A stretch of DNA of 64,000 bases from a virus, in the IMG/VR virus record IMGVR_UViG_3300031555_005249; one strand, given 5' to 3'. The stretch's first letter is position 1. Each line of letters begins with the position of its first letter. The notes under the pieces are model-generated. The model did no database searches. It was not told the DNA's origin and worked only from the letters and a program-made list of their open reading frames with translations. The position numbers and the translations under genes are program-made. Of the stretch, positions 12,290-26,997 are shown piece after piece.

Positions 12290-12322
12290 TATATTATACC
12301 ACACTCTTGGTCATTTGTCAAG
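12290..12322 (-). promoter_or_regulatory. sigma-70 consensus promoter, TTGACA-17-TATAAT, with AT-rich UP-like tract
   Basis: Plus tgtcaa at 12316-12321 and attata at 12293-12298. Upstream (minus sense) AAAAAATTTTTCAAAAAC tract. Confidence 0.65.
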
Positions 12323-12368
12323 AGGTTTGGTAAAAGTTTTTGAAAAATTTTTTTGGTATGAGGGAGAA

Positions 12369-12779
12369 TTACTCTCCCTCTACCTCGTCTACTACCCCGT
12401 AATTAAGGGAGTAGTATGCAACTTTCTTTTCAAGGGTGCGCTTAAAGTCTGCGCTCTTGGACACGATAGCGGTAATCATCTGTGACGATACGTTATCTCC
12501 GTTAGCTCTCTTATACTCTTTGATAGAATCGACCTTGAGGAGTGAGCCAACGGTCATTCCCTTTTCATCTACACACTCGGCGAGAGCGTCCTTGATAAGT
12601 TCGGTTACTGCGAGAGCGTCTTTCTGCGCAGGAGTGAGAGAAGCGGACTTTGAGTTCTTACGGGAGAGAAGCTCTATCTCGTGAGCCATAACATCTGCCC
12701 ACTCGGTTTTGCCGTTCTCTATGAGGAACGCTTTGATGTTCTCAAAATTCTCTCTCTTGGTGATTTTCTTTTCTGCCAT
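12369..12779 (-). CDS. small early protein, paralog family member
   Basis: ORF-track ORF with TAA stop inside the hairpin loop. Paralog of 3777..4166 and 13351..13755. Confidence 0.55.
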   Translation of the reverse strand: MAEKKITKRENFENIKAFLIENGKTEWADVMAHEIELLSRKNSKSASLTPAQKDALAVTELIKDALAECVDEKGMTVGSLLKVDSIKEYKRANGDNVSSQMITAIVSKSADFKRTLEKKVAYYSLNYGVVDEVEGE

Positions 12780-12856
12780 AGTTTTCTACCTTTGCGATCT
12801 GTGACCGCCCTTTCAAAATTTTTTATTTCAAGAGGATTTTCCTCTTGATTACATAT

Positions 12857-12889
12857 ATATTATATCACAAGTTTGTGATTTTGTCAAGG
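12857..12889 (-). promoter_or_regulatory. P1 promoter, TTGACA-17-TATAAT
   Basis: Plus tgtcaa at 12882-12887 and attata at 12859-12864. Confidence 0.65.
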
Positions 12890-12996
12890 GGTTTTTGAAA
12901 AGTTTTTCAAAAATTTTTTATTTTTTTCAGTGGTTGCAACTACGGGACGATGCCTCGCAAGGTCGTTCTATCCGTCACCGCCCCTTGACTACGATA

Positions 12997-13029
12997 ATAT
13001 TATATCATAAAAAGATAAATTTGTCAATA
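12997..13029 (-). promoter_or_regulatory. P2 promoter, TTGACA-17-TATAAT, ~130 bp upstream of P1, with conserved leader ATTATCGTAGTCAAGGGG
   Basis: Plus tgtcaa at 13022-13027 and attata at 12999-13004. The 25-nt block ccccttgactacgataatattata recurs at 15301-15325. Confidence 0.55.
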
Positions 13030-13080
13030 GAAAATGGGAAAATAATTTGCACAAATTTGAGAGGAATTTTGGTGAGAAAA

Positions 13081-13097
13081 TTGTGCAACTTGCACAA
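13081..13097. promoter_or_regulatory. palindromic operator-like site TTGTGCAAcTTGCACAA
   Basis: Perfect 8-1-8 palindrome, with an additional half-site TTTGCACAAA at 13047-13056. The same motif occurs at 15409-15425 and 19508-19525, and half-sites at ~15375, ~16819, ~18296 and ~19079. Confidence 0.45.
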
Positions 13098-13140
13098 AAA
13101 CGCACAAATCGGCCCAGCGGCGGCCGCCGTTGGGCCGGTC

Positions 13141-13169
13141 AAAAAAAGACCTCTGCCGTCGCAGAGGTC
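13141..13169 (-). terminator. rho-independent terminator (minus) plus adjacent GC hairpin 13111-13136
   Basis: Plus A7 then hairpin GACCTCTGC-cgtc-GCAGAGGTC, which reads on minus as hairpin followed by a U-tract. Second hairpin GGCCCAGCGGCGGCCGCCGTTGGGCC. Confidence 0.5.
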
Positions 13170-13350
13170 TATCCTCGAGGTTGACCATTCTCGCTTTCTC
13201 GCCACTCCTTGCGCATAGGGGACTTTGGTTTTAATGGTCTGCAAAGGCGTGTGATTTGAACACACATCTGTTGGAAACGAAACCAACTGTTCTTCCATTA
13301 AACTACCCTTTGTTATGTATGAGGGGCGCATTTGCGCCCCTGTGCCTCAC

Positions 13351-13755
13351 TCACGCAAGGCGAAAGTAAGTGACCTTTTTGTCAATGGTCTTGACTACAT
13401 CACCGCAGTCAACGAGCTTTTTAAGCATAGAGGAAACTCGCTGTGAAGATGTTTCCTTACCATCTGCCCACTCAAACTCTGCGATACGAGAATCCTTTGC
13501 TATCGCACCGCACTGCATACCCTTTACATCGGTTGCTTCTGCGAGAACATCATGAATGAGGTCAAGGAAAGTATCAACTTCCTCTGCGCGCTTTGCGCTG
13601 ACCTTACCACTCTTGCTTTCAAGCTGACCGAGCTTCTTTTCGGCAAACTCGATTACTTTATCCATAGGGATTGTGGTCGGCTCTCCGCTTGCCATCTTGA
13701 TGATTTCCTCATACATCTGCTTCTGTGTGTACTTGATTTCCTTGATTTCTGCCAT
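13351..13755 (-). CDS. small early protein, paralog family member
   Basis: ORF-track ORF with TGA stop. Paralog of 3777 and 12369. Confidence 0.55.
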   Translation of the reverse strand: MAEIKEIKYTQKQMYEEIIKMASGEPTTIPMDKVIEFAEKKLGQLESKSGKVSAKRAEEVDTFLDLIHDVLAEATDVKGMQCGAIAKDSRIAEFEWADGKETSSQRVSSMLKKLVDCGDVVKTIDKKVTYFRLA

Positions 13756-13832
13756 AATTTTTTTCCTCTCTTGCTATTAGGTTGCAACCCTTTAATTTTA
13801 TTTATCAGAGGTATTCCCTCTTGATTACATAT

Positions 13833-13865
13833 ATATTATACCATACTTTTTGGTATTTGTCAATA
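13833..13865 (-). promoter_or_regulatory. sigma-70 consensus promoter, TTGACA-17-TATAAT
   Basis: Plus tgtcaa at 13858-13863 and attata at 13835-13840. Confidence 0.65.
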
Positions 13866-13906
13866 GGTTTTTGAAAAATTTTTTATTTTTTTTCTTGGGT
13901 AGAGGG

Positions 13907-14626
13907 TTATTCACCCTCTACCTCTTTGCGCTTATGAAAGGGATATACCCATTCACCCTCTGGAGTTAAGCAACCGAGTTTCGTGCGCTCTTGGAAGATA
14001 TTACAACCTCTTTTTCCAAGTTCACAAAGAATACGGAGTTCCCATTGAACATCGGAAAGTGCGGTATGTTCCTCAACAAAATCTTTATCTTGGTTAAGAA
14101 ATGCGGTTACACCCTCAACAGAGGTCGGTATATATTTACCACTTGGAGTGCGGAGTTCGTGTTCGTTGCAAAATGCGATATAATCTGCGGTAGAGCATAT
14201 GTCGTATTGTGCATTACACCATATATCTATAACCTCGATTTTGTCAAGTGGATTCAAAATACCGAGCGCAGTTGCGGTTCTGCGGAATTTGTCCTCGTCA
14301 AACTCGGAGTTATAGGCAAAGCCATACTGTATGCCATATCGGTCAATATCTCTTGCTATTTGCTCAAATATCTGTTTTTCGGTACGGAGTATTGCCGTTC
14401 CGTTCTCAACATTCAAGTCAAACTTTGCGAGTTTTTCTGCTTTGACGAACATATCATTCAAGAGCCAAATGCGGTTGTGATAATGTTTGCCTACAAGATA
14501 GTCTTTGCCTTTGAGTATCTTATACTTAAAGGTTGTTAAGTCAACATCTGCTATACAATAGCCTATGTTAAGTAGTGTTTGGGTACAACACCCTGCGGTT
14601 TCGGTATCAAATACCATAATGTTCAT
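13907..14626 (-). CDS. DEDDh-type 3'-5' exonuclease (DnaQ-like)
   Basis: MVFDTETAG (Exo I D-x-E motif) and HTALSDV (Exo III). 239 codons with no TAG, TAA stop. Confidence 0.65.
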   Translation of the reverse strand: MNIMVFDTETAGCCTQTLLNIGYCIADVDLTTFKYKILKGKDYLVGKHYHNRIWLLNDMFVKAEKLAKFDLNVENGTAILRTEKQIFEQIARDIDRYGIQYGFAYNSEFDEDKFRRTATALGILNPLDKIEVIDIWCNAQYDICSTADYIAFCNEHELRTPSGKYIPTSVEGVTAFLNQDKDFVEEHTALSDVQWELRILCELGKRGCNIFQERTKLGCLTPEGEWVYPFHKRKEVEGE

Positions 14627-14683
14627 TTTTTCTTTTCCTCTCTTTCTGTCATAGGGAGTAGCCCTCGCTCTCCACTCGACATA

Positions 14684-14716
14684 TATATTATATCACATCT
14701 TGACGAATTTGTCAAG
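14684..14716 (-). promoter_or_regulatory. sigma-70 consensus promoter, TTGACA-17-TATAAT
   Basis: Plus tgtcaa at 14709-14714 and attata at 14686-14691. Overlaps the 3' end of upstream gene 14712..15158. Confidence 0.6.
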
Positions 14717-15158
14717 AGGTTTTACAAAATTTTTTCAAAATTTCAAAAATTTTTTCGGGCGGAAATGCGTCACCCTTAGTCCACTCAAGGCGGTTGCGCT
14801 CTTCATCGTCAAACAGTATGCCCTCACTCTTGGCTACGGACGATTTGGGTGTGCCATATGGAACGATATGCAATTCATCAAAAATAACGGACTTCAAGTG
14901 CTTTTTGAGCCATTTGCGCTTGGCTTTAGTGACCGCCTTGTTATAGTCCTCAGTTGCGGCTTTAGACAGCCACGATATAACACCTATATGAACGCCATTG
15001 CGCTGAGCCTTATTCAATGCTCTTGCAAGTGCAGACATATTGTGCATAGGTCTTGCTTCTTCATATGGGCGCGTTCGCTTGGCTTCAAGGTCATCGAGCC
15101 AGCCTTCGACCGCATAAAGGTCAGCAACGGTGCCGTCAAGGTCTAAATAAATTGTCAT
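14712..15158 (-). CDS. HAD-superfamily 5'(3')-deoxyribonucleotidase-like protein
   Basis: N-terminal IYLDLDGTVADL (DxDGT HAD motif I). ORF-track ORF with no TAG. Confidence 0.6.
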   Translation of the reverse strand: MTIYLDLDGTVADLYAVEGWLDDLEAKRTRPYEEARPMHNMSALARALNKAQRNGVHIGVISWLSKAATEDYNKAVTKAKRKWLKKHLKSVIFDELHIVPYGTPKSSVAKSEGILFDDEERNRLEWTKGDAFPPEKIFEILKKFCKTS

Positions 15159-15190
15159 TTGGTTTAGTTCCTTTCTTCCTTACTGCTCTT

Positions 15191-15223
15191 ATATTATACC
15201 ATACTTTGAGCGATTTGTCAAGG
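15191..15223 (-). promoter_or_regulatory. P1 promoter, TTGACA-17-TATAAT
   Basis: Plus tgtcaa at 15216-15221 and attata at 15193-15198. Confidence 0.6.
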
Positions 15224-15315
15224 GGTTTTTGAAAAATTTTTTCAAAAATTTTTGAGTGTCCACTGATTAGCAAGTCCATTTCACTGCTTTTGTTTCTCAC
15301 CCCTTGACTACGATA

Positions 15316-15348
15316 ATATTATACCACAAAGGGCGCAAAAAGTCAAGC
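15316..15348 (-). promoter_or_regulatory. P2 promoter, TTGACT-17-TATAAT, with conserved leader
   Basis: Plus agtcaa at 15341-15346 and attata at 15318-15323. Same conserved block as at 12981-13005. Confidence 0.55.
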
Positions 15349-15408
15349 GGTTTTGGGAATTTTCTTTTCGTCAATTTGCACAAACTTTTGGCGAAAAAAT
15401 GCGTGGAA

Positions 15409-15425
15409 TTGTGCAATTTGCACAA
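15409..15425. promoter_or_regulatory. palindromic operator-like site TTGTGCAAtTTGCACAA
   Basis: Second copy of the 8-1-8 palindrome, with half-site TTTGCACAAA at ~15375-15384. Confidence 0.45.
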
Positions 15426-15459
15426 AAACGGCGCCACACCGATCGGTGGCGCGCCGACC

Positions 15460-15486
15460 AAAAAGAGGGAGATTAATCTCCCTCTA
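15460..15486 (-). terminator. rho-independent terminator overlapping stop of 15473..15682; GC hairpin 15431-15452
   Basis: AAAAAG then hairpin AGAGGGAGAT-TA-ATCTCCCTCT. The TAA stop sits in the loop. Confidence 0.5.
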
Positions 15487-15682
15487 TTATGATTTTATTG
15501 ATAACTTTTGCATAGTCTTCTTGCGCTCTTCGGAATGCTTGTGCCGCAGTATGCAAAGGGCATTCTTCGCAATCAATTTCGCCGCACTGTATATGAATGC
15601 AGGGGTCAATCATTATAGCTTCAAGAGTGTCGTGCTGTTCTGTTGCGGTTATTGTGACTATGATTTTCATATTTACCTCCAA
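15473..15682 (-). CDS. hypothetical small Cys-rich protein
   Basis: ORF-track ORF with TAA stop. Confidence 0.5.
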   Translation of the reverse strand: MEVNMKIIVTITATEQHDTLEAIMIDPCIHIQCGEIDCEECPLHTAAQAFRRAQEDYAKVINKIIIEGD

Positions 15683-15933
15683 ATTAAATTGATAAGATAA
15701 TAAGTATTCATCGCAAATAATGCGACATTAAGTATTACAAGATTTATGCGCCTTGCGCTAAAGCAAAATGCGGTTGCGATTGCCGAGCCGATGAAGAATA
15801 ATACTGTCATATCGGCGCCACACATAACACCTATTGCGCAAGCGGTATAGATTAGTGCGGTGATATCGGTGATATCAAATTCATAGGGGCGGTCAAGGCT
15901 GAAATAGGTTTTTAGTTTACCAATCAAAGTCAT
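15673..15933 (-). CDS. small membrane protein
   Basis: ORF-track ORF, hydrophobic throughout. Confidence 0.5.
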   Translation of the reverse strand: MTLIGKLKTYFSLDRPYEFDITDITALIYTACAIGVMCGADMTVLFFIGSAIATAFCFSARRINLVILNVALFAMNTYYLINLIWR

Positions 15934-16105
15934 CTACCTCTTCTTCCTCATAATCATTAGTATAATAATATTGCGTGGTTTTGAACTCTTTACCACAACC
16001 GCATTTATATTTGCGACTTGCGACAATTTGCTCTCCGTCCTCTTCATATTTTGCCGATAAATATTTAACTTGGGCGGTGCTACCGCAATTTGGACATTTA
16101 ATCAT
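15917..16105 (-). CDS. zinc-ribbon protein (CPNC...CGC)
   Basis: ORF-track ORF with acidic C-terminal tail. Confidence 0.5.
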   Translation of the reverse strand: MIKCPNCGSTAQVKYLSAKYEEDGEQIVASRKYKCGCGKEFKTTQYYYTNDYEEEEVDDFDW

Positions 16106-16305
16106 TTTAATTTAAGCTCCTTTCTAATATTGATAATTCCACGAAATTCTGCGGTATAGATTGCTTCACAGTGAGGGCAACAAACTTTAGCCTCAAAATC
16201 TGCTTCATACCCGTCAAAATTCCATATCTTTGCATCCACATCTCCACAGAACAAGTCATCTCTGGTTATAAGTTTATCGCAATTTGGGCATTTAATCATT
16301 TTCAA
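16102..16305 (-). CDS. zinc-ribbon protein (CPNC...CPHC)
   Basis: ORF-track ORF. Confidence 0.5.
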   Translation of the reverse strand: MKMIKCPNCDKLITRDDLFCGDVDAKIWNFDGYEADFEAKVCCPHCEAIYTAEFRGIINIRKELKLK

Positions 16306-16489
16306 ATTCTCCTTGATATTCTCTTATTGTGCAATATCCACTCCAACGCCATTCAAGGCATTGTTGATTGATATATTCTTGTGCCTGTTCTTGACTATCA
16401 AAGATAGGCGGTTTATTATCTCCTATGAATCCTTTATGCAAGAAGCCGTTTGGACAAGAGCGAGTATGAATATAAATTACATATTGCAT
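16292..16489 (-). CDS. hypothetical protein (MQYVIYIHTRSCPNGF...)
   Basis: Internal ATG of ORF 16292..16825. The upstream part of that ORF overlaps the tRNA and promoter, so it is discounted. Confidence 0.45.
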   Translation of the reverse strand: MQYVIYIHTRSCPNGFLHKGFIGDNKPPIFDSQEQAQEYINQQCLEWRWSGYCTIREYQGEFEND

Positions 16490-16509
16490 AAGTATTACCT
16501 CTCTTTTTT

Positions 16510-16584
16510 TGGTGAAGCGAATGGGAATTGAACCCACAACGCAGTTGAATAGTGTCAACCTCATTACCTTTGTGATACCGCTTC
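16510..16584 (-). tRNA. candidate amber-suppressor tRNA (anticodon loop contains CUA), CCA encoded
   Basis: Minus-strand read GAAGCGGTATCACAAAGGTAATGAGGTTGACACTATTCAACTGCGTTGTGGGTTCAATTCCCATTCGCTTCACCA. Hand fold gives a 7-bp acceptor stem (GAAGCGG/TCGCTTC, one GU) with discriminator A + CCA, a T-arm GTGGG-TTCAATT-CCCAT with canonical TTCAA T-loop, and an anticodon arm GTTGA-CACTAT-TCAAC whose loop centre is CTA. The D-arm is short (3 bp) and the anticodon loop is 6 nt by hand, so it is non-canonical or my fold is imperfect. Sits between genes under a consensus promoter ~7 nt upstream. Confidence 0.55.
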
Positions 16585-16595
16585 TTATTACATTT

Positions 16596-16628
16596 ATATT
16601 ATACCATATAATCTTGCTTTTGTCAAGA
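16596..16628 (-). promoter_or_regulatory. sigma-70 consensus promoter driving the tRNA, TTGACA-17-TATAAT
   Basis: Plus tgtcaa at 16621-16626 and attata at 16598-16603. The predicted TSS falls a few nt upstream of the tRNA 5' end. Confidence 0.6.
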
Positions 16629-16779
16629 GGTTTTCGAAAAATATTTGCAACTATTTTTCTTATCTCCGATACTTTCCTACTCAAAGCTTTCGTGTCCGTT
16701 CTCTTGTTGTACACCAAGTTTCTGATTTCCATTCCTTGCAAGTTAATTTCTCCGCACGAGGTTCCCCCTCTTGACATTA

Positions 16780-16812
16780 TTATTATATCATACAATCGGG
16801 AAAATGTCAAGT
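16780..16812 (-). promoter_or_regulatory. second upstream promoter (P2-type), TTGACA-17-TATAAT
   Basis: Plus tgtcaa at 16805-16810 and attata at 16782-16787. TGCACAA half-sites at ~16819 and ~16860. Confidence 0.5.
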
Positions 16813-17013
16813 GGTAATGTTGCACAAAGTTTCAACAAAAAAATGGCGGGAAGTGTACAAAATGCACAAAACGGAACGCGCCGGCCGGGCTCGTTCCGCT
16901 CGGATTTCAGGCAAAAAAGAAAAAACCCAGAACTCATGAAAAGCTCTGGAAATTTGTTGAGAGGTCTACTTCGTGGAAATTCGGACTTGGCGCGACCGCC
17001 TTCGTCCGTCAGC

Positions 17014-17316
17014 TTAATGGCTGAAGTGTTTCAACACGTCTTGTACATTGTACTCATTTTCATCATCACTCATAATTATAATTTTATTTTCCCATTCAGC
17101 AGGAATGCTTAAAATTTTAAATGTTTCCTTTAAGAATGAAATCATATTCGTACAATCATTTTTTTGATTGTCAGAATGAAAGAGAAGGGCGCCCAACTCT
17201 TCACAATAAAGTGCATGAAGTGGATAGTCTTGCGCCGAGAGGGTTTCCCAATCAAGGGGAGTAAGTGATGATTCAAAAGAAGTGATGACAAGAGCGTGGA
17301 TGAAGTGATACTTCAT
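17014..17316 (-). CDS. hypothetical protein
   Basis: ORF-track ORF with TAA stop. Confidence 0.5.
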   Translation of the reverse strand: MKYHFIHALVITSFESSLTPLDWETLSAQDYPLHALYCEELGALLFHSDNQKNDCTNMISFLKETFKILSIPAEWENKIIIMSDDENEYNVQDVLKHFSH

Positions 17317-17357
17317 ACCGCGTGACCTCCTTGTATCTCTTATTTCTTTTTACATTT

Positions 17358-17390
17358 ATATTATAATATAAAATTTTATAAAAATCAATG
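17358..17390 (-). promoter_or_regulatory. sigma-70-type promoter, TTGATT-17-TATAAT
   Basis: Plus aatcaa at 17383-17388 and attata at 17360-17365. Confidence 0.55.
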
Positions 17391-17398
17391 GGTGTGGA

Positions 17399-17605
17399 TT
17401 ATTCCACACCCAAGAGTTCCTTTATTTTATTGACTACTTGCTCTTGTGCTTGTTTCAGAATGTAATAATCACAATTATCAAGTGTTGCAATATAATCATC
17501 TACCGCTATGCGGATTTCAATTTCATTACTATTATGATTAAGATCATACTCCTTAATGATTTCTTTTTCATTGATTTCTACGCCCGTAGTAATCTCTATA
17601 TACAT
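17399..17605 (-). CDS. hypothetical small protein (MYIEITTGVEINEKE...)
   Basis: Internal ATG of ORF 17399..17725 with an AAAAGGAGAAAACAAT RBS. The stop lies in a hairpin loop. Confidence 0.45.
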   Translation of the reverse strand: MYIEITTGVEINEKEIIKEYDLNHNSNEIEIRIAVDDYIATLDNCDYYILKQAQEQVVNKIKELLGVE

Positions 17606-17648
17606 ATTGTTTTCTCCTTTTGCGAATTTCCAAATTTTTCCAATGCGC

Positions 17649-17906
17649 CTACCAAGCGACTCGGATATGATATCTACCTTCAAAAAGGTTTTTTTCAATC
17701 TCAGCCTTGTAGCCAAATTTTTCAAGATTCGCTCTTATGAGTTCGACCTCATCTTTGGAAACCTCTTTTACTCCACTGAAATAACCTTGTGAAGCCCTTT
17801 TTTTGATGAAGCGCAACATCTCTTTCATTGCCCACGAATGCATGAATTGGTTTTGATTATTTTCTGCCATCTCTCTTGCTTCCTTTGCGGTCATAGGGTT
17901 TTTCAT
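17649..17906 (-). CDS. hypothetical protein; stop is TAG with a 22-codon in-frame extension to TGA
   Basis: ORF-track ORF. Stop codon is TAG (plus cta at 17649-17651), followed in frame by AHWKNLEIRKRRKQYVYRDYYGRRNQ then TGA. Confidence 0.5.
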   Translation of the reverse strand: MKNPMTAKEAREMAENNQNQFMHSWAMKEMLRFIKKRASQGYFSGVKEVSKDEVELIRANLEKFGYKAEIEKNLFEGRYHIRVAW

Positions 17907-17935
17907 AAGTATTTCCTCTCTTTCTTTTAGTATAT

Positions 17936-17968
17936 ATATTATACCATACTTTTATATATTTGTCAAGT
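17936..17968 (-). promoter_or_regulatory. sigma-70 consensus promoter, TTGACA-17-TATAAT
   Basis: Plus tgtcaa at 17961-17966 and attata at 17938-17943. Confidence 0.6.
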
Positions 17969-17980
17969 AGTTTTTGAAAA

Positions 17981-18205
17981 TTATTTGAAAAAAATTTCAA
18001 GCACAATTACATCGTCGCAACAACCCTCAATAGTTATTTCCATACTATCTATCTTGCGGTTAGCATACTCTTTAATATGCTCACATTCTTTAACATACCA
18101 ATCGATTGATTGAGCACCAAGCCATTGTTCTGCTTTGAGTAAGAAGTTGTCATAAATGCGGATTTTATCTATGTTGTAGATAAGCGGAAGTTGTGCAAGT
18201 GTCAT
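17981..18205 (-). CDS. hypothetical small protein
   Basis: ORF-track ORF. Confidence 0.5.
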   Translation of the reverse strand: MTLAQLPLIYNIDKIRIYDNFLLKAEQWLGAQSIDWYVKECEHIKEYANRKIDSMEITIEGCCDDVIVLEIFFK

Positions 18206-18235
18206 AAGTCATTTTCCTCTCTTTCTTTTACACTT

Positions 18236-18268
18236 ATATTATACCACAAATATCGGGAATTGTCAATA
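18236..18268 (-). promoter_or_regulatory. sigma-70 consensus promoter, TTGACA-17-TATAAT
   Basis: Plus tgtcaa at 18261-18266 and attata at 18238-18243. TTTGTGCAAA half-site at ~18296. Confidence 0.6.
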
Positions 18269-18384
18269 GGTAATAATCAACAAAGTTTTGCGCCGATTTT
18301 TGTGCAAAATGCCAGCCCACAGATAAAACGGCTCGGCGCGCCCGATGCCGAGCCGCCAAAAAACAAAAGAGGGCAATCGCCCTC

Positions 18385-18765
18385 TTAGGTTTGATATTTA
18401 GTTATCTCTGTGGAAGAGCTTTGCGCCACCATTAGCGAAATACACCTTTGCATTGTATCGAGTTCAACCACTCTGATGACTTTGCCTTTAGCATACGCAT
18501 ATCCGCACTCCCAAGCTGATCCAAGGTCACCATTGGCGCCTTCGCAAAAATAGAGAATTTCATCACATTCATCTATTGCTTGAACGTCGTGTTGGAATAC
18601 CTTGCGCGCCCATTCGGAGTTAGGTAAAGCTTTAGCATTAGGTATCTCTAATTCGTGGGGAACGTAAACTTTATATCCTAACTGTCGTAAGAGTTTTGCG
18701 TGCTTGTTTATTCTGTCCTTTTGGCTTTCGGTAAACATAGCACTTGCTATATAAAACTTTTTCAT
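18385..18765 (-). CDS. nucleoside 2-deoxyribosyltransferase-like protein
   Basis: N-terminal FYIASAMF plus GSAWECGYAYAKGK resemble the Nuc_deoxyrib_tr family signature. TAA stop. Confidence 0.5.
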   Translation of the reverse strand: MKKFYIASAMFTESQKDRINKHAKLLRQLGYKVYVPHELEIPNAKALPNSEWARKVFQHDVQAIDECDEILYFCEGANGDLGSAWECGYAYAKGKVIRVVELDTMQRCISLMVAQSSSTEITKYQT

Positions 18766-18790
18766 ATCTCACCTCTTGATAGTGGATAGA

Positions 18791-19009
18791 TTATTCATCT
18801 ATCCACTCTTTTACTTTATAGGCTGTAACCTCGACAATATCAGCGGTGAATTTTATCTCTCCCGTAAAGTTATAGATTACGTAAGTATTACCTCTGTTAT
18901 TTGTCGTAAACTCTCTTGCAAACTGAATTGCCATACTAAGATCGTCAAAATCAGCAATATGTTTGCCGTCCGCATAGACGCCATAGTCAAGAATGTCAAA
19001 TTTTACCAT
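18791..19009 (-). CDS. hypothetical small protein
   Basis: ORF-track ORF. The stop lies in a hairpin loop (AGTGGATAGAT-tattc-ATCTATCCACT). Confidence 0.5.
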   Translation of the reverse strand: MVKFDILDYGVYADGKHIADFDDLSMAIQFAREFTTNNRGNTYVIYNFTGEIKFTADIVEVTAYKVKEWIDE

Positions 19010-19041
19010 AATATTAATACCTTCCTTCCTTTACTGTGCCT

Positions 19042-19074
19042 ATATTATATCATATTACTTGCCTCTTGTCAATA
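19042..19074 (-). promoter_or_regulatory. sigma-70 consensus promoter, TTGACA-17-TATAAT
   Basis: Plus tgtcaa at 19067-19072 and attata at 19044-19049. TTTGCACAAA half-site immediately upstream. Confidence 0.6.
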
Positions 19075-19107
19075 GGCATTTTGCACAAAATTTTGCGGCG
19101 GGTCTTG

Positions 19108-19416
19108 TTAACAATATACAAGACCCATATCACGCCAACGGAGAATAGAAATTTGAGAGCAGGCGCGCCCGACCTCAAGCGCTTTTTTCAAGGTACTTTC
19201 GCGATGGCTCTTGTCTATGTAATAAACTCCAGAACTATACCATATACCACAGTTGCCTTCGTATGCCTTAACGGCGTTGATTGCTTCGCGCGGGTCACGG
19301 GTTTCGATACCTTCGGTGGCTACTTGGTAGCCTGTTTTGAACGTGACGCGCTGACCCTTTTTGAGAGTTAAGCCGTCATTATCTTTAAGTTTGAGAATCG
19401 AGCGAATGTTAATCAT
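19108..19416 (-). CDS. hypothetical protein
   Basis: ORF-track ORF. Confidence 0.5.
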   Translation of the reverse strand: MINIRSILKLKDNDGLTLKKGQRVTFKTGYQVATEGIETRDPREAINAVKAYEGNCGIWYSSGVYYIDKSHRESTLKKALEVGRACSQISILRWRDMGLVYC

Positions 19417-19446
19417 AGGTGTTTCCCCTTCCTTTATCTTACGTAC

Positions 19447-19479
19447 TTATTATACCATAAAAGCGGGAATTTGTCAATA
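19447..19479 (-). promoter_or_regulatory. sigma-70 consensus promoter, TTGACA-17-TATAAT, with upstream palindrome 19508-19525
   Basis: Plus tgtcaa at 19472-19477 and attata at 19449-19454. TTTGTGCAAcTTGCACAA sits ~30 bp upstream of the -35. Confidence 0.6.
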
Positions 19480-19593
19480 GGCAAAAGTAACAAAGTTTTG
19501 ATAGTAAATTTGTGCAACTTGCACAACTATGCGTAAAGCGTCACGCCGCGGCCCTTGGCGTGACGGCGAAAAAAAAAGAGGGCGCAAGCGCCC

Positions 19594-19794
19594 TCATATG
19601 AAGTCGGCAAATTGGTCTTCCACCCAAGCCATTATAAGAGGATTAAAGGTTTGTATCTCAACCTCTACGCATGAGGGATGGACTTGGAGAAGAATTGCCT
19701 CTCCTGCGTTATTAGCGGCGAGGAATGAGCAGACTTTTTGCACCGCCATACCGCTTTCAAAAGTTTTATTAAGCATAAAATTCTTATACTGCAT
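19594..19794 (-). CDS. hypothetical small protein (MQYKNFMLNK...)
   Basis: Internal ATG of ORF 19594..19995 with an AGGAGA RBS. The TGA stop lies inside terminator hairpin AGAGGGCGC-aa-GCGCCCTC, which is preceded by A9. Confidence 0.4.
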   Translation of the reverse strand: MQYKNFMLNKTFESGMAVQKVCSFLAANNAGEAILLQVHPSCVEVEIQTFNPLIMAWVEDQFADFI

Positions 19795-19822
19795 ATATAT
19801 CTCCTTTCTTATGGGGATTGCC

Positions 19823-20110
19823 TTAGCAATCCCCCGTATAGCAACCCATATAGGGGTCAAAGCCGTTTTCATCAGGCTCTTCTTCCTCATAGTCATACCA
19901 GTCGTCATTATAATAGAGGGTCTCAGAGCCGTGATGGTAAATGATGCGCGCCATATCTGTCGCCTCTGCTTCAGTAAGATAGCCATTAGCAACAAGCTCT
20001 ATAAGTCTGCCTATTGCAAGAGAATGAGTATCTTCAAGTCCAAATTCCGTACAAGCAAGATTGAAGCAAGTCTGCAAGTCGAGTTTTGTGTAATCCATAA
20101 TGCACCTCAT
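19823..20110 (-). CDS. hypothetical acidic protein
   Basis: ORF-track ORF. The stop lies in a hairpin loop (GGGGATTGC-ctta-GCAATCCCC). Confidence 0.5.
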   Translation of the reverse strand: MRCIMDYTKLDLQTCFNLACTEFGLEDTHSLAIGRLIELVANGYLTEAEATDMARIIYHHGSETLYYNDDWYDYEEEEPDENGFDPYMGCYTGDC

Positions 20111-20148
20111 AGTATTTATTTGAGAGTCTATTCCCTCTCTTCTTGCCT

Positions 20149-20181
20149 ATATTATATCATATATTCTTGCATTTGTCAATG
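20149..20181 (-). promoter_or_regulatory. sigma-70 consensus promoter, TTGACA-17-TATAAT
   Basis: Plus tgtcaa at 20174-20179 and attata at 20151-20156. Confidence 0.6.
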
Positions 20182-20384
20182 AATAAAATGTAAACAATAT
20201 ATGAATTATGGGACGGGATCCAATCATAGTTTATTCAATCAATTGAAATAAAAAATTTACAAATTGTTCACAAATTGCTTTAACGGTGCGCGCCGACCGT
20301 GCCCGCACCGAGCGATATAAAAAGGCGCGCCAAAGGTCACCCTAAGGCGCGTTATAGTGTTGATATGAGATGCTAAGGGCGCGC

Positions 20385-20678
20385 TCAGGCGCCCTCATCA
20401 TCAAGCTGACTCTCTATAAATGGTATGATGATATTGAATATTTCAACTTCTTTATTGGTTAAGCCTATAATATCGCAATATGCTATTGGCTCTGCTATAT
20501 CTTTATATACCGTGCGTACTGAGGGGCTTAAATGGTATGGGTCAATATAAGGGTCGCTATCACTATCACCCCACATTCTGTCACCTTTGACATCGTATAT
20601 TGCCAATACATCGCCGAAGTAGCGGGCAAGATATTCTGCCCATTGTGTAAACTCATTTTGTATGCTTATTCTTTTCAT
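20385..20678 (-). CDS. hypothetical protein
   Basis: ORF-track ORF. Confidence 0.5.
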   Translation of the reverse strand: MKRISIQNEFTQWAEYLARYFGDVLAIYDVKGDRMWGDSDSDPYIDPYHLSPSVRTVYKDIAEPIAYCDIIGLTNKEVEIFNIIIPFIESQLDDEGA

Positions 20679-20682
20679 TATA

Positions 20683-20898
20683 TTATTCCCCCATTATCTC
20701 CGCTATTGTGTTATCATATATTCTTTTTGCTTTAGTAACGCCATATTGAAACGATATAATACCCTTACGATAGTCATCTAATATATGCCCTATGGCGATA
20801 GTTGTAGGGTGTTCAAGTCCTAACTCTTTACACGCTTTATTAAAGTATCTTCTTATGCTCATAATATTCTCCCTTCTTGAGAGGTGGATTATCTCCAC
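20683..20898 (-). CDS. hypothetical small protein
   Basis: ORF-track ORF. Confidence 0.5.
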   Translation of the reverse strand: MEIIHLSRRENIMSIRRYFNKACKELGLEHPTTIAIGHILDDYRKGIISFQYGVTKAKRIYDNTIAEIMGE

Positions 20899-21233
20899 CT
20901 CTCACCTCTCTCTATATCAAAGTAATATATAATTTCATCAGCGTCAATGAATTTATTTAAGTCAAGACCGCTATTGTAAAACAAGTCATTTAATTCATCA
21001 AGATTATTATAGTCATAAGGGTCAAACTCATAAAGTTCATCTTCATTATTGCAAAATGGGCAAGGGTCATTGTATTCCATAGCATACTGAGGAAGAGTCA
21101 CTTTATGACACTTGCTACAATAAAGTAAATCTGTTAAACGGGCAGGGCGAGTAACTATTTTGTTATTAAGATAAAACGTCGCAAGATATTTGTTATTGTA
21201 TTCATTGTGCTTTGTGTTAATAGTAATTTTCAT
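20889..21233 (-). CDS. zinc-ribbon-containing hypothetical protein (CSKC...CPFC)
   Basis: ORF-track ORF. The stop lies in a hairpin loop (GAGAGGTGGA-ttatc-TCCACCTCTC). Confidence 0.5.
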   Translation of the reverse strand: MKITINTKHNEYNNKYLATFYLNNKIVTRPARLTDLLYCSKCHKVTLPQYAMEYNDPCPFCNNEDELYEFDPYDYNNLDELNDLFYNSGLDLNKFIDADEIIYYFDIERGERWR

Positions 21234-21275
21234 TATTATATACCTCTCTTTTCTTTATCTTGACGGGGCTATTAT

Positions 21276-21440
21276 ATAGCCCCGTATAATTTCATAGGGT
21301 TACTTATATTGATTTTCTCTTGAGTGTTTTCTAACTGTTGTATTAAAGCTTTTTCCTCTAACTCTTGTAAAGCAAGTTCAAACTCATACTCTCGACGGTT
21401 ATCAATGTGCTTGTCGACCACTATTTTATTTTTCATTATC
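21276..21440 (-). CDS. small hypothetical protein (MKNKIVVDKHIDNRREYEFELALQELEEK...)
   Basis: Own translation with RBS AAAGGGGGTG. The TAA stop lies inside the palindrome GGGGCTAT-TAT-ATAGCCCC. Confidence 0.35.
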
Positions 21441-21540
21441 TTCACCCCCTTTGTCTATAATGGTAATAGCAATTTTTGCAACAAGTGCAATTAAACCTAT
21501 TACTAACCAAGTGCCAATAAATTCACCTAACATTTTTTTA
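21427..21540 (-). CDS. small TM peptide (MLGEFIGTWLVIGLIALVAKIAITIIDKGGEDNEK)
   Basis: Own translation with RBS GAGAGGTAAAAAAATG. Stop overlaps the next start. Confidence 0.3.
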
Positions 21541-21833
21541 CCTCTCTGTTTTGATTTTTTGTTTGCGCTCTCTCTCTTGGAGCATACTCATTGTATCACT
21601 TCTTTTTGAACTCCAAGTTTCGAAATTATGAACTTTTTGTAAATCCGACGGGATTTTTCAAATTTTTTTTGTTAACAACTACACAACAATCTCGACATCT
21701 TTTGTTCATAATTTATTCATAACTTTTTTAGTTATTTTCGGGAAAAAAATTATTCACAATTTGTTCACAATTCCGCTCACGACATCTCCCTCCTAGAATA
21801 TTTCTTTTATTTCAAAAAACGAACTTCTAACAA

Positions 21834-21866
21834 CAAAAGAGGGATTTTAACAAATCCCTCTTTGCT
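21834..21866 (-). terminator. rho-independent terminator after lipase gene
   Basis: Hairpin AAGAGGGATT-tgttaaa-ATCCCTCTT followed on minus by TTGTTGTT. Confidence 0.45.
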
Positions 21867-21898
21867 TCTCATATTCAATTGAAAATTACGCACACGTA

Positions 21899-22558
21899 TT
21901 ATAGTTCCTTAAAACGCTCGTTTTCTATTTCTCCTAGACTCTTTCGAATCTCTTCAGGATAATGATGTTTTACGCATTTAAAAATATTCTTTTTACCCAT
22001 TGGATATAATTCGCCAACATGGCGGAAAAAGAAGCATATAGGCGGCAAATGTGTAACTATATCACTTCCATTTCTAAACATGGTGAAATGTGCCCAGCGC
22101 TCTCTTAATTCTTTCTTAACGCGCCAGCCGCCATAGATTCTAGGTCCATCAAATCCAATACCGGTTAACCCCTCTGCGCGCAAGTCTTCTCTATGAAACC
22201 ACACAGCTTCATGACATAATGCGGCAAGAGCTGCGCCATGACTATAACCAACTACTACAATACGTTTCCACCTATAATCGCCGCTAAATCCTTTCTCGGT
22301 TGCGCGCCTAATAACAATATCTTCTATTGTTTTCCAGCACTTTAAGAAGCCTCCATGTACCCTATATTTTATCTTCATATCTTTATAGGGGCGGCGCCAG
22401 TAGGCGAAGTTAGCGCACCAATCTAGCTTACCGCGACTTGGCTAGAAAAAGATGTAAAGTGTCTTATCGCTCTCCAAAAATGCATAATTTACTTTGCCCT
22501 CTGCCTCTTGGTACTCAATCCAATTATTGCACCAATTAAATAACTATACTAAATTCAT
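21899..22558 (-). CDS. class-3 (Lipase_3 / alpha-beta hydrolase) lipase-like protein, TAG-recoded (2 TAG)
   Basis: ORF-track piece 21899..22378 has the GxSxG nucleophile elbow (VVVGYSHGAALAALC). Own upstream extension in frame gives MNLV[TAG]LFNWCNNWIEYQEAEGKVNYAFLESDKTLYIFF[TAG]PSRGKLDWCANFAYWRRPYKDMKIKYRVHGGF..., matching the Lipase_3 N-terminal region (..FRG(T)...W..N...VH.GF). Upstream in-frame TAA at ~22580. Confidence 0.6.
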
Positions 22559-22717
22559 GGCGCGCCCACCCTTAGCCGCTTAAGGTAACTGTCTAAGGAA
22601 GATATAACCTAGACCGGCGCTCTCTTAAAATAATAATCATCTCTTTTCTCCTTTCATATGATGATACTATTATTATAACAGATTTTTTTATAAAGTCAAG
22701 TACTTATTTCATTAACC

Positions 22718-22750
22718 TCTTGACATAGTAAAAATTTTTTGGTATAATTT
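22718..22750 (+). promoter_or_regulatory. plus-strand sigma-70 consensus promoter at start of morphogenesis block, TTGACA-17-TATAAT
   Basis: ttgaca at 22720-22725, tataat at 22743-22748, spacer 17. Confidence 0.6.
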
Positions 22751-22778
22751 ATTTAAAGATAGATGAAAGGAGTTTTGA

Positions 22779-23951
22779 ATGGATACATTACAAACTTTAG
22801 ACGACCTTTTGTCTGATGAGGATTTAGATATTGAAGACTCTTCTGAACAAGAGGAAGAAAATATAGAAGAGAAAATTATCACTGAAGATATTGCGCAAAC
22901 TATAAAATTAGATTATAAGTTAGCTACCTGCGAAGAGCGCTCGGCGTTGGTTAATAAGATTATAGCCCAAACCCCTGCCGCCTCTTTAACAAATCGTTAT
23001 TTAGAAATTTTAGGCGATTATATTATGGGAGGTATCACAAAAGAAGAACGTAAATCGCACCTATACCTTACTGACAATAGAATGATTACTGTTGCAAGGC
23101 GCGAAACGTCTTTTGAAGGTTTGGCAGAAAAATTTGAAAATGGAGAAGATGGTATTTATAATTTAATGACAAATGATAAAAATATTATCTTTGCACCAAA
23201 AAATACAATCACTGAAGAAGATATAGAAAATGTTCCTGGTCTTAAGCAATTGCGCGAGGCTATTATTCAAATTGAAGAGGAGGGGAAACGTGCTATAGGA
23301 AAGCGCAAATACCTTCTCAAAAAGCAACTCATAGAAATGCGTAAAGACCAATATATCTTAAAGAATTCATATTAGGCCCCCATGGTTTGCACTCCTTGTG
23401 CAAAAGGAGCAAATAAAATTGATTTAAGTGAAAAAAAATATGTAGATGAAAATGGAGATCCACAAAGCACAGGTTTAATTTCTTTTTTTAAACCAGAGCA
23501 TATTCAAGCAATTTTAAATAATTATAATGCTTTAAAAATAGAGACTAAAGGTAAATATTCTAGTGACTTTTTTTATTTGATGGAAGATTTTGATAAATTA
23601 TTACATAAGGCATTAGATAATTATCCTATGTATTTTGATATTGTAAAAATGAAAGTAAATGGAAAAACAAATATTGAAATTCAAAAAATGTTAAAAGAAA
23701 AACATAATACAAGTTTTACTGTGTAGTACATTTCCAGTCTATGGTGTAAAAAAATTCCTAAAATTATAGCTGAGAAAGAACAGCATGACTTCTTAATCTG
23801 GTATTATCGTAATGAACAAAAAGGCCCATGGAAGCGTTGCTCTTGTTGTAAAGAATTTAAACCAGCTAATTCGCGCTTTTTCTCTAAGAATCGCACAAGT
23901 AAAGATGGATTTTATAGCATTTGCAAAATGTGCCGCAATAAGAAAAAATAA
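22779..23951 (+). CDS. hypothetical protein with C-terminal zinc ribbon (CSCC...CKMC), TAG-recoded (2 TAG)
   Basis: ORF-track ORFs 22779..23375 and 23382..23726 share a frame and are separated only by TAG. The frame continues past a second TAG (23724) to a TAA at 23949. RBS GAAAGGAG. Confidence 0.55.
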
Positions 23952-24032
23952 GGACAAAAATAATTATATATATACGCTTAATTTTATAAATCAATAAAGG
24001 CAAGCAAAATATAATTAAGAAAGGAGATTCTA

Positions 24033-25244
24033 ATGGCTAAATATCATTGTAATAAATGCAATAAAGAATTAGAAGAAATTAATTTTTATAAGTATAGAGA
24101 TGGTAGTTATGTAGAACTTTGTAAAAAATGTTTGACAATGCATGTTGATGTTTTTGATCCTAGCACTTTTACATGGCTATTAGAAAAATTAGACGTTCCT
24201 TATATCCCTCAAGAGTGGAACGCAGTAATTGAAAATAAAATGGCGAAAAAGCCAGATAAGCCTATTTCACATTCTGCTGTATTTGGATCTTATTTATCGA
24301 AGACTAAATTAAAACAGTGGAAGGATTATTATTGGGCAGATAATGAGCGTATTCAAGAATTATATTATCAACAAAGCGCGCAGGCTTCTGCGGAAAAGGC
24401 TGAACTTGATGCGATGTATCAGGAGTAGTTTGAAGCGGGTCAGATTTCAGAAGCATAGTATAAAACTCTTACCTCCCCAAAGGCGCGCAATGATTCTATG
24501 ATGGCGGCGCTTAGCGCAGGTGGCCCTTATTTAGGAGAAAATAACTCTTTTAATGAGAATGATTTTATTGATGACTCTGCATTACCCGATTTATCTGCGC
24601 AAATGACACAAGAAGAAAAGATTACCTATGCAATGAAATGGGGTAAGTTATATAAGCCTAGTGAATGGATAGAGCTTGAAACAGATTATCAAAAGATGAA
24701 AAAATCATTTGATATTCAAGATGCAGACTCTGAAAATACATTAATTCTTTTATGTAAAACAAATTTAAAAGCTAACCAAGCTATTGACTGTGGCGATATC
24801 GAAGGCTTTTAGAAATTATCAAAAGTATCTGAATCATTGCGTAAATCAGCTAAGTTTACAGCAGCGCAAAATAAAGAACAAAAAGATGATTATGTAGATT
24901 CTATTGGATAGCTTATCGCTATTTGCGAAAAAGATGGTTTTATTCCAAGGTTTGCGACAGATATACCTCAAGATAAAGTTGATATGACTTTACGAGATAT
25001 GAATGAATATGTGCGTAAGCTAGTTACCCAAGATTTAGGCTTTGGACAACAAATTGAAGACTCTTTAAAGAAAATTATGATTCAAAATGAAATGAATCGT
25101 GAGGCGGAAGCGCGCCAGGCAGAAGAGGGTGATGACTTTGACCCTTATGCGCCAACGGAACTCGAGGATGAAGATATTGTTGCGCATTATGACAATTTAC
25201 TAGAGATGAGACAAAAAGATCGAGATTTACTCGAGAAAGAGTGA
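24033..25244 (+). CDS. hypothetical protein with N-terminal zinc ribbon (CNKC...CKKC), TAG-recoded (about 4 TAG)
   Basis: ORFs 24033..24428, 24498..24812 and 24984..25244 share a frame and are separated only by TAG codons. TGA stop at 25242-25244. Position upstream of the large terminase suggests a possible small terminase or packaging accessory, but this is unverified. Confidence 0.5.
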
Positions 25245-25248
25245 AGCT

Positions 25249-26997
25249 ATGGCAGTTCAAGATCTAATTAATCTCGCCCTTTGTGGAGACCAGAAAAAAA
25301 TAGGGTTGTCAAAAGAACGCATTATGAAATAGATACCAATAGTGCGGTAGTATGTTGCCTATTGGCGCGAATATCCTGATATGTTTGTAGAATTCTTATG
25401 CGGTCCAGAGAACAAAGAAAATTTTTAGTTATTTTTTTATTAGCGTTTATTTTTACGCGCAGTTATGCGTCATAGATATGCCTATGCAACGTTTCCTCGT
25501 GCGTATTCAAAAAGTTTTCTCTCAGTACTTGTATTAATGCTAAGATGTATACTATATCCTGGTAGCCATTTATTCGTTACCACAGGGGGTAAAGAGCAAG
25601 CGGCAGGTATTGCTAAAGAAAAATCAGACGAGCTTTGCAAATTAATACCTGGATTAAAGAATGAGCTCGATATGACAAGAGGTAAGACTAAAACAAGTAA
25701 AGATAATATTGAATTAATATTTAAAAATGGTTCAAAATTAGATATTATGGCGGCGCGCCAGTCGTCTCGTGGTAAACGTGCTACCGGTGGTCTAATGGAA
25801 GAGTGTATTCTTATAGACTAGACCTTGCTGAACGAAGTTATTATTCCTACAATGAACGTAGATCGAAGATTATCAGACGGTTCCCGCGTAGAGGAGGAAA
25901 CTGTTAACAAGAGTCAGATTTATGTGACGACCGCAGGATGGAAGAATAGCTTTGCTTATGAAAAACTTATAGAGTTGCTAATTCGTCAAATTATTTATCC
26001 TGATGAAGCAGTTGTTATGGGTGGAACCTGGCGTATTCCAGTTATGGAAAAATTACTAAAAAAGAGCTTTATTGAAGAACTAAAATTAGACGGAACTTAC
26101 AATGATGCTTCCTTTAGTCGAGAATATGAATCAGAATGGAGTGGAGATGCTGAAAATGCCTTCTTCTCTGCTGAAAAATTTGATAAGCATCGTCAATTAT
26201 TACAACCAGAATACGAGTATTCCGGACGTACGTCAAAGAGTGGATATTACGTACTTGGCGTCGATGTGGGTCGTCTTAAGTGTACAACTGAAGTTTGTAT
26301 TTTCAAAGTCACTCCTTAGGCGCAAGGCGCAGCTTTAAAATCTTTAGTCAATCTCTATTCCTATGAAGCCGAGGACTTTGAAGCACAAGCTATTAAAATT
26401 AAAAAGTTATTTTATAAATACAAGGCTCGTATGATCGCAATTGACGCCAATGGACTTGGAGTTGGTTTAATAGACTTCATGACCAAAGGACAAGAGGATC
26501 CAGAAACAGGTGAATATTTGCCGCCTTTTGGAGTTGATGGAGGCACATCTGATGAGTTTAATGAGCAGTATAAGAAAGTTAAAGGCGCCGGAGTGGAAGA
26601 AAATGCAATGTATTTAATTAAAGCTAATGCGCCTATTAATACAGAAGCTCATACTTACGTACAAACTCAATTGGTTGGAGGTAAAATTAAACTTTTAATT
26701 GATGAAACTTAGGCTAAAACAAAATTAATGGCAACAAAGATGGGACAAGAAATGGATGCGTCCAAGCGCGCCGATTATTTAATGCCATTTACACAAACTA
26801 CAATTTTGCGTGAGTAGCTTTTGAATCTTGTAGAAGATAACGAAGGTACAAATATTATTCTTAAGCAATCATCTCGCGGGATTCCAAAAGATAAGTTTTC
26901 TGCTTTTGAATATGGATTATATTATATTAAGCAAGAAGAAGACCGTAGTCGAAAACGTAAAAAGAGAAATATATCAGAGATGATGTTCTTCTCTTGA
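25249..26997 (+). CDS. terL: terminase large subunit, TAG-recoded (about 7 TAG)
   Basis: Single frame from ATG 25249 through ORF-track pieces 25465..25821, 25825..26319 and 26431..26712 to TGA at 26995. Carries ATPase-like FPRAYSKSF / ILID motifs, YVTTAGW coupling motif, and C-terminal RNaseH-like nuclease Asp motifs (YYVLGVDVGR; IAIDANGLGVG). Confidence 0.7.

Follow-up and report, generated by a model that had tools for sequence, protein, structure and literature searches.

The 64,000-nucleotide stretch of virus DNA analyzed here, from the IMG/VR record IMGVR_UViG_3300031555_005249 (hereafter, the window), carries on its minus strand a gene that is interrupted under the standard code by two in-frame TAG codons and that, when these codons are read as glutamine, encodes an intact class-3 lipase of the alpha/beta-hydrolase superfamily with a complete predicted active site, namely, the Ser106-Asp166-His199 triad, the oxyanion-hole residue Ser41 and a lid-type segment that includes Trp47. 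The interpretation that best fits the sequence evidence, to which we assign a probability of roughly 0.75, is that the product is a cytoplasmic serine acyl-ester hydrolase that would become available in its full-length form only once suppression of TAG is active. Both the enzyme family and the recoded type of phage are known; this gene is a new member, and the phage lipase clade that it helps to define is uncharacterized.

The gene and its two unusual codons are the following:
21899-22558, minus strand: coding sequence of the class-3 lipase (Lipase_3), 219 codons followed by TAA, with TAG read as Gln, identified by translation, Pfam PF01764 and homolog alignments.
22544-22546, minus strand: in-frame TAG at codon 5, in a homolog column occupied by D, E, Q, K or A, with Gln in 9 of 79 sequences.
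22442-22444, minus strand: in-frame TAG at codon 39, within the F-x-[PG]-S oxyanion-hole block, aligned with R80 in the FRGS sequence of the Rhizomucor miehei lipase.

These are the only internal stops in the frame, which contains neither TAA nor TGA within its 219 codons and no frameshifts; glutamine is otherwise specified by a single CAA. The family column that corresponds to codon 39 consists of E or Q, and the frequency of Gln in this column (26 of the 79 sequences) is the highest of all columns. Thus, the proposal of the initial annotation that the gene is amber-recoded and becomes whole only when two TAG codons are read through is upheld, both sites falling in columns that carry Gln. Under the standard code, translation of the gene ends after four residues, and an open reading frame (ORF) finder that uses this code recovers only the C-terminal 159 codons, starting from Met61 (22378..21899), which is also the form in the public record (P0001); missing from this shorter ORF are the oxyanion hole, the lid and the first beta-strands. 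In alignments with 305 relatives (215-280 amino acids long, 45-65% identical), 95-100% of the read-through protein is matched, and both TAG sites fall within the homologous region. The gene, with both TAG codons, is identical at every base in five independent metagenome contigs (L001-L005), and a sixth, shorter contig (L006), which holds part of the gene, also has the TAG at codon 39. Because the same bases recur in independent contigs, the TAG codons are not sequencing errors.

With TAG read as Q in the profile and structure-database searches, the protein scored 52 bits against the Pfam profile PF01764 (Lipase_3), compared to the gathering cutoff of 22 (E=8.7e-14, residues 36-174, profile positions 2-138 of 140), in agreement with the class-3 assignment that had been made from the sequence motifs. 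Significant matches were also obtained with the esterase/lipase family PHROG 21992 (E=9.7e-14) and, by sequence, with PDB entries for fungal class-3 lipases (E ~5e-11). The alignment of 80 members of the family contains 30 invariant columns, and the window protein retains the conserved residue in all 30, among them S41, D46, W47, H68, S106, H107, H116, E117, D166 and H199. The predicted active site maps to the following positions:
22235-22249, minus strand: nucleophile elbow G-Y-S-H-G, residues 104-108, with the Ser106 codon at 22243-22241, read directly from the sequence.
22436-22438, minus strand: Ser41, the predicted oxyanion-hole residue, invariant in the 80 sequences and aligned with Ser82 of the R. 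miehei lipase.
22061-22063, minus strand: Asp166, the predicted catalytic acid, in the motif S-D-I-V-T-H, invariant and aligned with Asp203 of the R. miehei lipase.
21962-21964, minus strand: His199, the predicted catalytic base, in the motif x-H-Y-P, invariant in the 80 sequences.

In the published numbering of the R. miehei lipase, the triad is Ser144-Asp203-His257, the oxyanion-hole residue is Ser82 and the lid tryptophan is Trp88. Ser106 of the window protein aligns with the nucleophile in the G-H-S144-L-G motif of the fungal enzyme, and G104, S106, H107 and G108 of the elbow are all invariant in the family. The block F38-(TAG)39-P40-S41 aligns with F79-R80-G81-S82, and the invariant Trp47 with the lid Trp88. 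All three motifs listed in the initial annotation are accordingly accounted for (GYSHG at residues 104-108, VHGGF at residues 67-71 and the FRG-like block, in the form F-TAG-P-S, at residues 38-41), and the catalytic triad that it proposed to look for in an alignment is found there as Ser106, Asp166 and His199.

An AlphaFold model was built for P0002, the closest full-length homolog (65% identity to the window protein), and is of high overall quality (predicted local distance difference test 90.5, predicted template-modeling score 0.90), with lower confidence only in the segment equivalent to the lid. In a Foldseek search of the PDB with this model, the best match is the R. miehei lipase (E=5e-11, template-modeling (TM) score 0.6, 29-30% identity); next come feruloyl esterase A, the Thermomyces lipase, mono- and diacylglycerol lipases and plant phospholipase A1, and all matches at E<=1e-5 possess the class-3 lipase fold, including triacylglycerol lipases, an M37 lipase and the lipase-like EDS1-PAD4 complex. 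The resemblance to the fungal class-3 lipases (R. miehei, PDB 1TGL, 3TGL and 4TGL; Thermomyces lanuginosus) includes the alpha/beta-hydrolase fold, the GxSxG motif, the Ser-Asp-His order of the catalytic residues, the F-x-G/P-S block and a 26-residue lid with a conserved Trp, with ~29-30% identity over ~185 residues. Unlike these enzymes, the window protein is shorter by ~50 residues, has a ~20-residue deletion ahead of the catalytic His, lacks a signal or propeptide, is encoded by a phage with two sense TAG codons, and displays family-specific invariant residues (H68, C115-H116-E117, W120, R123, R140 and R154-W155).

Neither a signal peptide, a hydrophobic N-terminal stretch or a transmembrane segment nor a cell-wall-binding or carbohydrate-binding domain was found in the lipase sequence and, because there is no N-terminal hydrophobic stretch, the product probably acts in the cytoplasm. 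A role in defense was considered and rejected, given that the PADLOC models yielded no match at E<=1 and NCBIfam only a 15-bit chance match.

Sense TAG codons are not peculiar to the lipase. The recoding is real and genome-wide in the late block of the phage and is absent from the early block. The summed length of the ORFs of at least 150 codons increases from 7,349 to 17,668 codons once TAG is read through, ORFs of 3142 codons (82 TAGs) and 1654 codons (32 TAGs) being created in the process, and the genes for TerL and the portal protein, each with 8 TAGs, are recognizable only under read-through. When five late proteins were compared with their orthologs from the related phage L009, the window TAG at 24 sites faced Gln in 11 cases, TAG in 8 and another residue in 5. 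The early block (11785-21533, minus strand) comprises 1,974 codons, with 64 CAA or CAG and no in-frame TAG, and the late block (22779-63711, plus strand) 12,962 codons, with 392 CAA or CAG and 199 in-frame TAGs. The stops of 48 curated genes are TAA in 33 and TGA in 15; neither block terminates any gene with TAG.

Gut phages that use code 15 (TAG=Gln) and in which the recoded stops occur preferentially in late genes have been described (Borges et al., bioRxiv 10.1101/2021.08.26.457843; Peters et al., PMC9523058; the phAss-1 group, PMC10607447). As in these phages, the TAG codons of the window align with Gln and concentrate in structural and other late genes as well as in homing endonucleases, the early module is free of TAG, and the host is a low-GC Firmicute with the standard code. 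Unlike the described cases, the window phage belongs to what appears to be an SPbeta-like lineage, with the YonG_N and YonD_N markers and no nucleotide similarity to GenBank phages, and the recoded gene at issue is an accessory enzyme with a host-type promoter rather than a structural or lysis gene. The marker domains come from precomputed Pfam annotation, YonG_N on the gene equivalent to window positions 24033-25244 and YonD_N in the relative L009; megablast of window positions 20000-26000 against GenBank phages detected no DNA similarity. The longest contig of the phage is 135,217 bp, compared to the ~130-135 kb of SPbeta-like genomes, and the phage appears to be an SPbeta-like virus of ~135 kb with TAG=Gln in the late module. 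Outside the late block, two putative GIY-YIG homing endonucleases, recognized by eye from their GIY...YIG motifs, contain 6 (1910-2740, minus strand) and 2 (8395-8790, plus strand) in-frame TAGs, in agreement with the report that homing endonucleases are preferentially recoded.

Going left from the plus-strand late block, the first unit is the lipase gene, on the opposite strand, with the following signals around it:
22672-22699, minus strand: sigma-70-type promoter of the lipase unit, TTGACT-16-TATAAT with a TG extension, 11 of 12 matches to the consensus.
22720-22748, plus strand: divergent partner promoter, TTGACA-17-TATAAT with TG, 12 of 12 matches, for the first recoded plus-strand gene.
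21836-21863, minus strand: intrinsic terminator directly 3' of the lipase stop, a perfect 12-bp stem with a 4-nt loop and a T-rich tail (inverted repeat I8).
22572-22640, minus strand: candidate upstream ORF (uORF) in the lipase leader, MIIILRERRSRLYLP-TAG-TVTLSG-TAA, speculative.
22779-23951, plus strand: sigma-factor-like gene that opens the recoded late block, 390 codons with 2 in-frame TAGs (PHROG 5767 'sigma factor', E=2.9e-44).

With its own promoter and terminator, the lipase is, as judged from these signals, a stand-alone transcription unit. The lipase promoter and that of the sigma-like gene are arranged back-to-back, and this placement is kept in two recoded relatives, which bears out the earlier description of the gene as divergently placed at the early/late junction. 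The gene shares its coding style, that is, the TAG codons, with the late block and its strand with the early genes. The sigma-like gene, the product of which has a C-terminal zinc-ribbon-like tail, is followed by a YonG-like gene and then by those for TerL and the portal protein (the latter two identified by PHROG); because it combines a perfect host-type promoter with two in-frame TAGs, the phage may need amber suppression even for late transcription. The candidate uORF has a strong Shine-Dalgarno (SD) sequence (GAAAGGAG) and ends 13 nt ahead of the lipase ATG, which itself is preceded by only a weak SD; the context ATGAAAGGAG is common to the uORF SD and the ribosome-binding site of the sigma-like gene (inverted repeat I21). 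Speculatively, the uORF with its TAG read through could be translationally coupled to the lipase. The possibility of a structured RNA switch in the leader was rejected, the fold being no more stable than those of shuffled sequences (z=0.34) and Rfam giving only a sub-threshold chance match.

Two other TAG-recoded, syntenic phages, one represented by contigs L009 and L010 from ENA metagenomes and the other by L099, a 123-kb IMG/VR contig, have their lipase gene at this junction as well, with the sigma-like gene on one strand and DUF7352, a gene for a protein of ~60 amino acids and the lipase on the other. The TAG-free pair of DUF7352 (114 amino acids) and the ~60-amino-acid protein that precedes the lipase in these phages (L009 7475-7998, L099 4494-5023) is missing at the equivalent position of the window. 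Each of the relatives has a single TAG in the lipase gene, at codon 36 in L009/L010 and at codon 19 in L099. The conservation of the junction placement and of sense TAGs, but not of the TAG sites, fits ordinary drift of Gln codons to TAG in a translated gene. All 4 lipase TAGs of the three recoded phages are located within the first 40 codons, and a special N-terminal gate was therefore considered; it was ruled out, given that 35% of the Gln residues of the family lie in the same stretch (P ~0.015) and that the TAGs of late genes are evenly spread. The N-terminal location is explained by sites that tolerate Gln.

Beyond the recoded phages, the lipase family is present in 55 IMG/VR contigs, mostly of 95-200 kb, and at 280 loci in the GTDB species representatives, nearly all of them from uncultured gut Clostridia. 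In a neighbor-joining (NJ) tree, the window protein groups with those of L009 and L099 and with a larger viral group (up to 60% identity), and the chromosomal Clostridia copies, with no more than 47% identity to the window protein, cluster apart. Sequence comparison thus places the phage proteins in a branch of their own within a family that gut Clostridia also carry on the chromosome. The chromosomal Lipase_3 proteins of ~220 amino acids from metagenome-assembled genomes of Christensenellales, Oscillospiraceae, 'Ca. Scatosoma' and similar groups have the same length and the same invariant residues (40-47% identity), but, unlike the phage copies with their separate NJ cluster, are found in ordinary contexts: the two chromosomal loci inspected are flanked by genes for an ABC transporter, GH3 and a Na+/H+ exchanger, and 63 chromosomal loci provided no operon clue, the most recurrent neighbor family occurring in 8 of the 63. 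Recent capture of the gene from the host was rejected because the gene falls in the range of the phage by GC content and because the phage copies group separately.

Among viral proteins, the best structural match is A0A8S5SD86, annotated as 'Lipase', from Siphoviridae sp. ctnpt50 (35% identity, TM 0.78). Like this protein and PHROG 21992, the window protein is a small phage-borne Lipase_3; unlike them, it belongs to a sub-clade without tblastn matches in GenBank phages. The remark in the initial annotation that lipases are uncommon phage cargo holds for GenBank phages (no tblastn match to the lipase at E<=1e-5 in 50,697 records) but not for the large uncultured phages of gut Clostridia, as the IMG/VR contigs indicate. 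These proteins define a conserved branch of class-3 lipases, predicted to be intracellular, that is confined to large gut-Clostridia phages and is missing from databases of cultured phages.

Taken together, these observations suggest how a TAG-dependent lipase might work. Through its sigma-70-type promoter, the gene could be transcribed by the host RNA polymerase early or at any other time of infection, and the full-length enzyme would appear only after the phage establishes amber suppression, the timing thus being set at translation. Because the lipase has its own host-type promoter, the TAG codons would gate translation, not transcription, and the same logic of translational gating would apply to the adjacent sigma-like gene. 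The statement of the initial annotation that the lipase would be expressed with the late genes is, accordingly, an inference. More tentatively, the enzyme may work in the cytoplasm on acyl esters during the second half of infection, the likeliest substrates being membrane glycerolipids, which it would attack as a phospholipase A1 or a diacylglycerol lipase. A lipid substrate is favored because the lid Trp is conserved and because true lipases and phospholipase A1 are among the best matches. The benefit to the phage could be weakening of the membrane, recycling of lipids or something else.

A translational-timer model has been proposed for recoded phages in general (bioRxiv 10.1101/2021.08.26.457843). 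The evidence for recoding as an expression timer comes mostly from structural and lysis genes, for which the timing of transcription and that of translation are inseparable. The lipase is a small, easily assayed enzyme with its own consensus host-type promoter and terminator, and the two TAG codons are the sole obstacle to its expression. Together with the neighboring sigma-like gene, it offers a compact test case for recoding as a translational timer.

Several observations weigh against this reading or qualify it. His199 is located C-terminal to the segment aligned by HMMER, and its match to His257 of the R. miehei lipase follows from position and invariance; furthermore, the modeled structure is that of P0002, not of the exact window protein, and the triad is a predicted one. 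A suppressor tRNA with the anticodon CTA was not found in the 64-kb window or in 3.3 kb of the adjoining tRNA array, nor did scanning the IMG/VR and metagenome collections for exact matches bring up anything. By composition (GC 0.40, GC at third codon positions (GC3) 0.38), the lipase is like the early genes and not the late genes. The structural neighbors include a feruloyl esterase, and the substrate need not be a lipid. Finally, standard-code relatives carry the lipase amid genes for nucleotide metabolism and auxiliary functions, namely, ThyX, FolD and DNMK in L007, and peptide deformylase, an FtsH-like protein and HAD in L011; because of this setting, a late or lytic role is not implied by ancestry. 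As for composition in general, the early genes of the window mostly have a GC content of 0.39-0.47, and the late genes mostly 0.29-0.40, with GC3 of 0.24-0.29.

An unlikely but still appreciable alternative retains the TAG-gated serine hydrolase and changes its target, which would be not a membrane lipid but a small-molecule ester, or else an O-acyl, feruloyl or acetyl ester on an envelope or dietary polymer encountered after lysis. Feruloyl esterase A (FaeA) is among the best structural matches, the standard-code relatives keep the lipase near metabolic auxiliary genes (ThyX, FolD, DNMK, peptide deformylase and HAD phosphatases), and the samples, to judge from the record titles, come from ruminant and animal gut, where hydrolysis of plant esters is common. 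Nevertheless, the best matches by sequence and structure are triacylglycerol lipases, at 29-30% identity compared to 16-19% for FaeA, the Trp-containing lid segment is conserved as it is in interfacially activated lipases, and the sequence contains neither a carbohydrate-binding nor a secretion signal.

Less probable still is the role suggested in the initial annotation, that of a lysis accessory or a virion-associated enzyme, comparable to mycobacteriophage LysB or to the GDSL lipase of some lysis cassettes. By virtue of its TAG codons, the lipase belongs to the same translational class as the structural and lysis genes, and lipases are documented in the lysis cassettes of other phages (PMC12173070). 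Phage serine esterases that act on lipids of the host envelope, such as LysB of mycobacteriophage Ms6 and the GDSL lipase of a Pseudomonas syringae phage (PMC12173070), provide a possible functional analogy. However, LysB, which is cutinase-like, and the GDSL enzyme belong to other families; they are part of lysis cassettes and act on specialized outer envelopes, and nothing of this kind was found here. Moreover, the lipase gene is not part of the structural operon, is encoded on the opposite strand and is separated by ~32 kb from an XepA-like gene (54312-54650), the only lysis-associated marker seen; neither a signal peptide nor a transmembrane segment or cell-wall-binding domain is present in its product, and in the standard-code relatives the gene does not adjoin holin, endolysin or structural genes. 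Neither the position nor the sequence of the gene, as far as these can tell, supports a role in lysis or in the virion.

That the gene is a decaying pseudogene, with the two TAGs as nonsense mutations and no functional enzyme made, is very improbable because the evidence of recoding is consistent from several directions: the frame is broken under the standard code, with only the 159-amino-acid C-terminal ORF (P0001) called, but it has accumulated no frameshift, TAA or TGA in 219 codons, all 30 family-invariant residues are kept, also those located ahead of the TAGs or between the two, the late genes contain 199 sense TAGs, the lipase TAG columns bear Gln in homologs, the lipases of two related phages have TAG elsewhere, and the same gene recurs in the five assemblies that span it in full; a sequence artifact is likewise very improbable. 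Equally hard to credit is a functional 159-amino-acid product made early, under the standard code and without suppression, from Met61 (22378..21899): the ATG at 22378 does open a TAG-free ORF that includes GYSHG and the Asp and His motifs, but such a protein would be devoid of the N-terminal beta-strands, Ser41 and the Trp47 lid segment that are conserved in every homolog (the missing part is a helix and three core strands in the P0002 model), the homologs, at 215-280 amino acids, start at the position of Met1, and no SD-like sequence is apparent ahead of Met61, by eye rather than by formal scoring.

Within the preferred reading, that of a cytoplasmic hydrolase dependent on TAG suppression, a more far-reaching and rather doubtful extension can be envisaged, in which the divergent junction is a code-switch checkpoint. 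The lipase and the sigma-like gene would both be transcribed from the start of infection and would remain untranslatable until suppression sets in, so that the change of code, and not a transcriptional cascade, would time both late transcription and the release of a membrane-active lipase; read-through of the uORF would bring ribosomes within 13 nt of the weakly SD-preceded lipase start, adding translational coupling. Should this be the case, the phage-specific lipase clade would represent a previously unrecognized effector of large Clostridia phages.

Some further features of the phage were observed along the way. The sole tRNA gene of the window (13241-13312, minus strand; Rfam tRNA, 44.6 bits) has an 8-nt anticodon loop, UUUCGUUU, for which ARAGORN calls the 4-base anticodon tcgt; conceivably, this tRNA could be quadruplet-reading or otherwise unusual. 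Just past the left end of the window, the phage has a tRNA array (L095 3246-6243) with Arg-TCT, Arg-ACG, Leu-CAA, Trp-CCA, Ile-GAT, Glu-TTC, Glu-CTC and Ile-TAT and, at L095 ~6155-6243, a Tyr-like tRNA with a long variable arm, which was seen by eye and is called by neither ARAGORN nor Rfam.

Beyond the lipase terminator, there is a regulatory region in which an operator-like 21-nt repeat occurs twice, followed by the TAG-free early operon. The 21-mer, TTRTGAAYAAATTRTGAAYAA, occurs at 21702-21722 and 21750-21770 (both minus strand) and at 11140-11160 (plus strand), that is, in 3 copies compared to 0.15 expected and at both ends of the TAG-free early block; these copies may be binding sites for a repressor or another regulator. 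Within 12293-20179, thirteen perfect promoters (12 of 12 matches, TTGACA-17-TATAAT with the TG extension) are found, all on the minus strand, along with a fourteenth, at 15346-15318, that has 11 of 12 matches (TTGACT-17-TATAAT). With the extended consensus ..AAAACCTC TTGACA AAT .. TGTGG TATAAT ATATATGT and one copy ahead of nearly every small TAG-free early gene, these look like a stereotyped family of early promoters.

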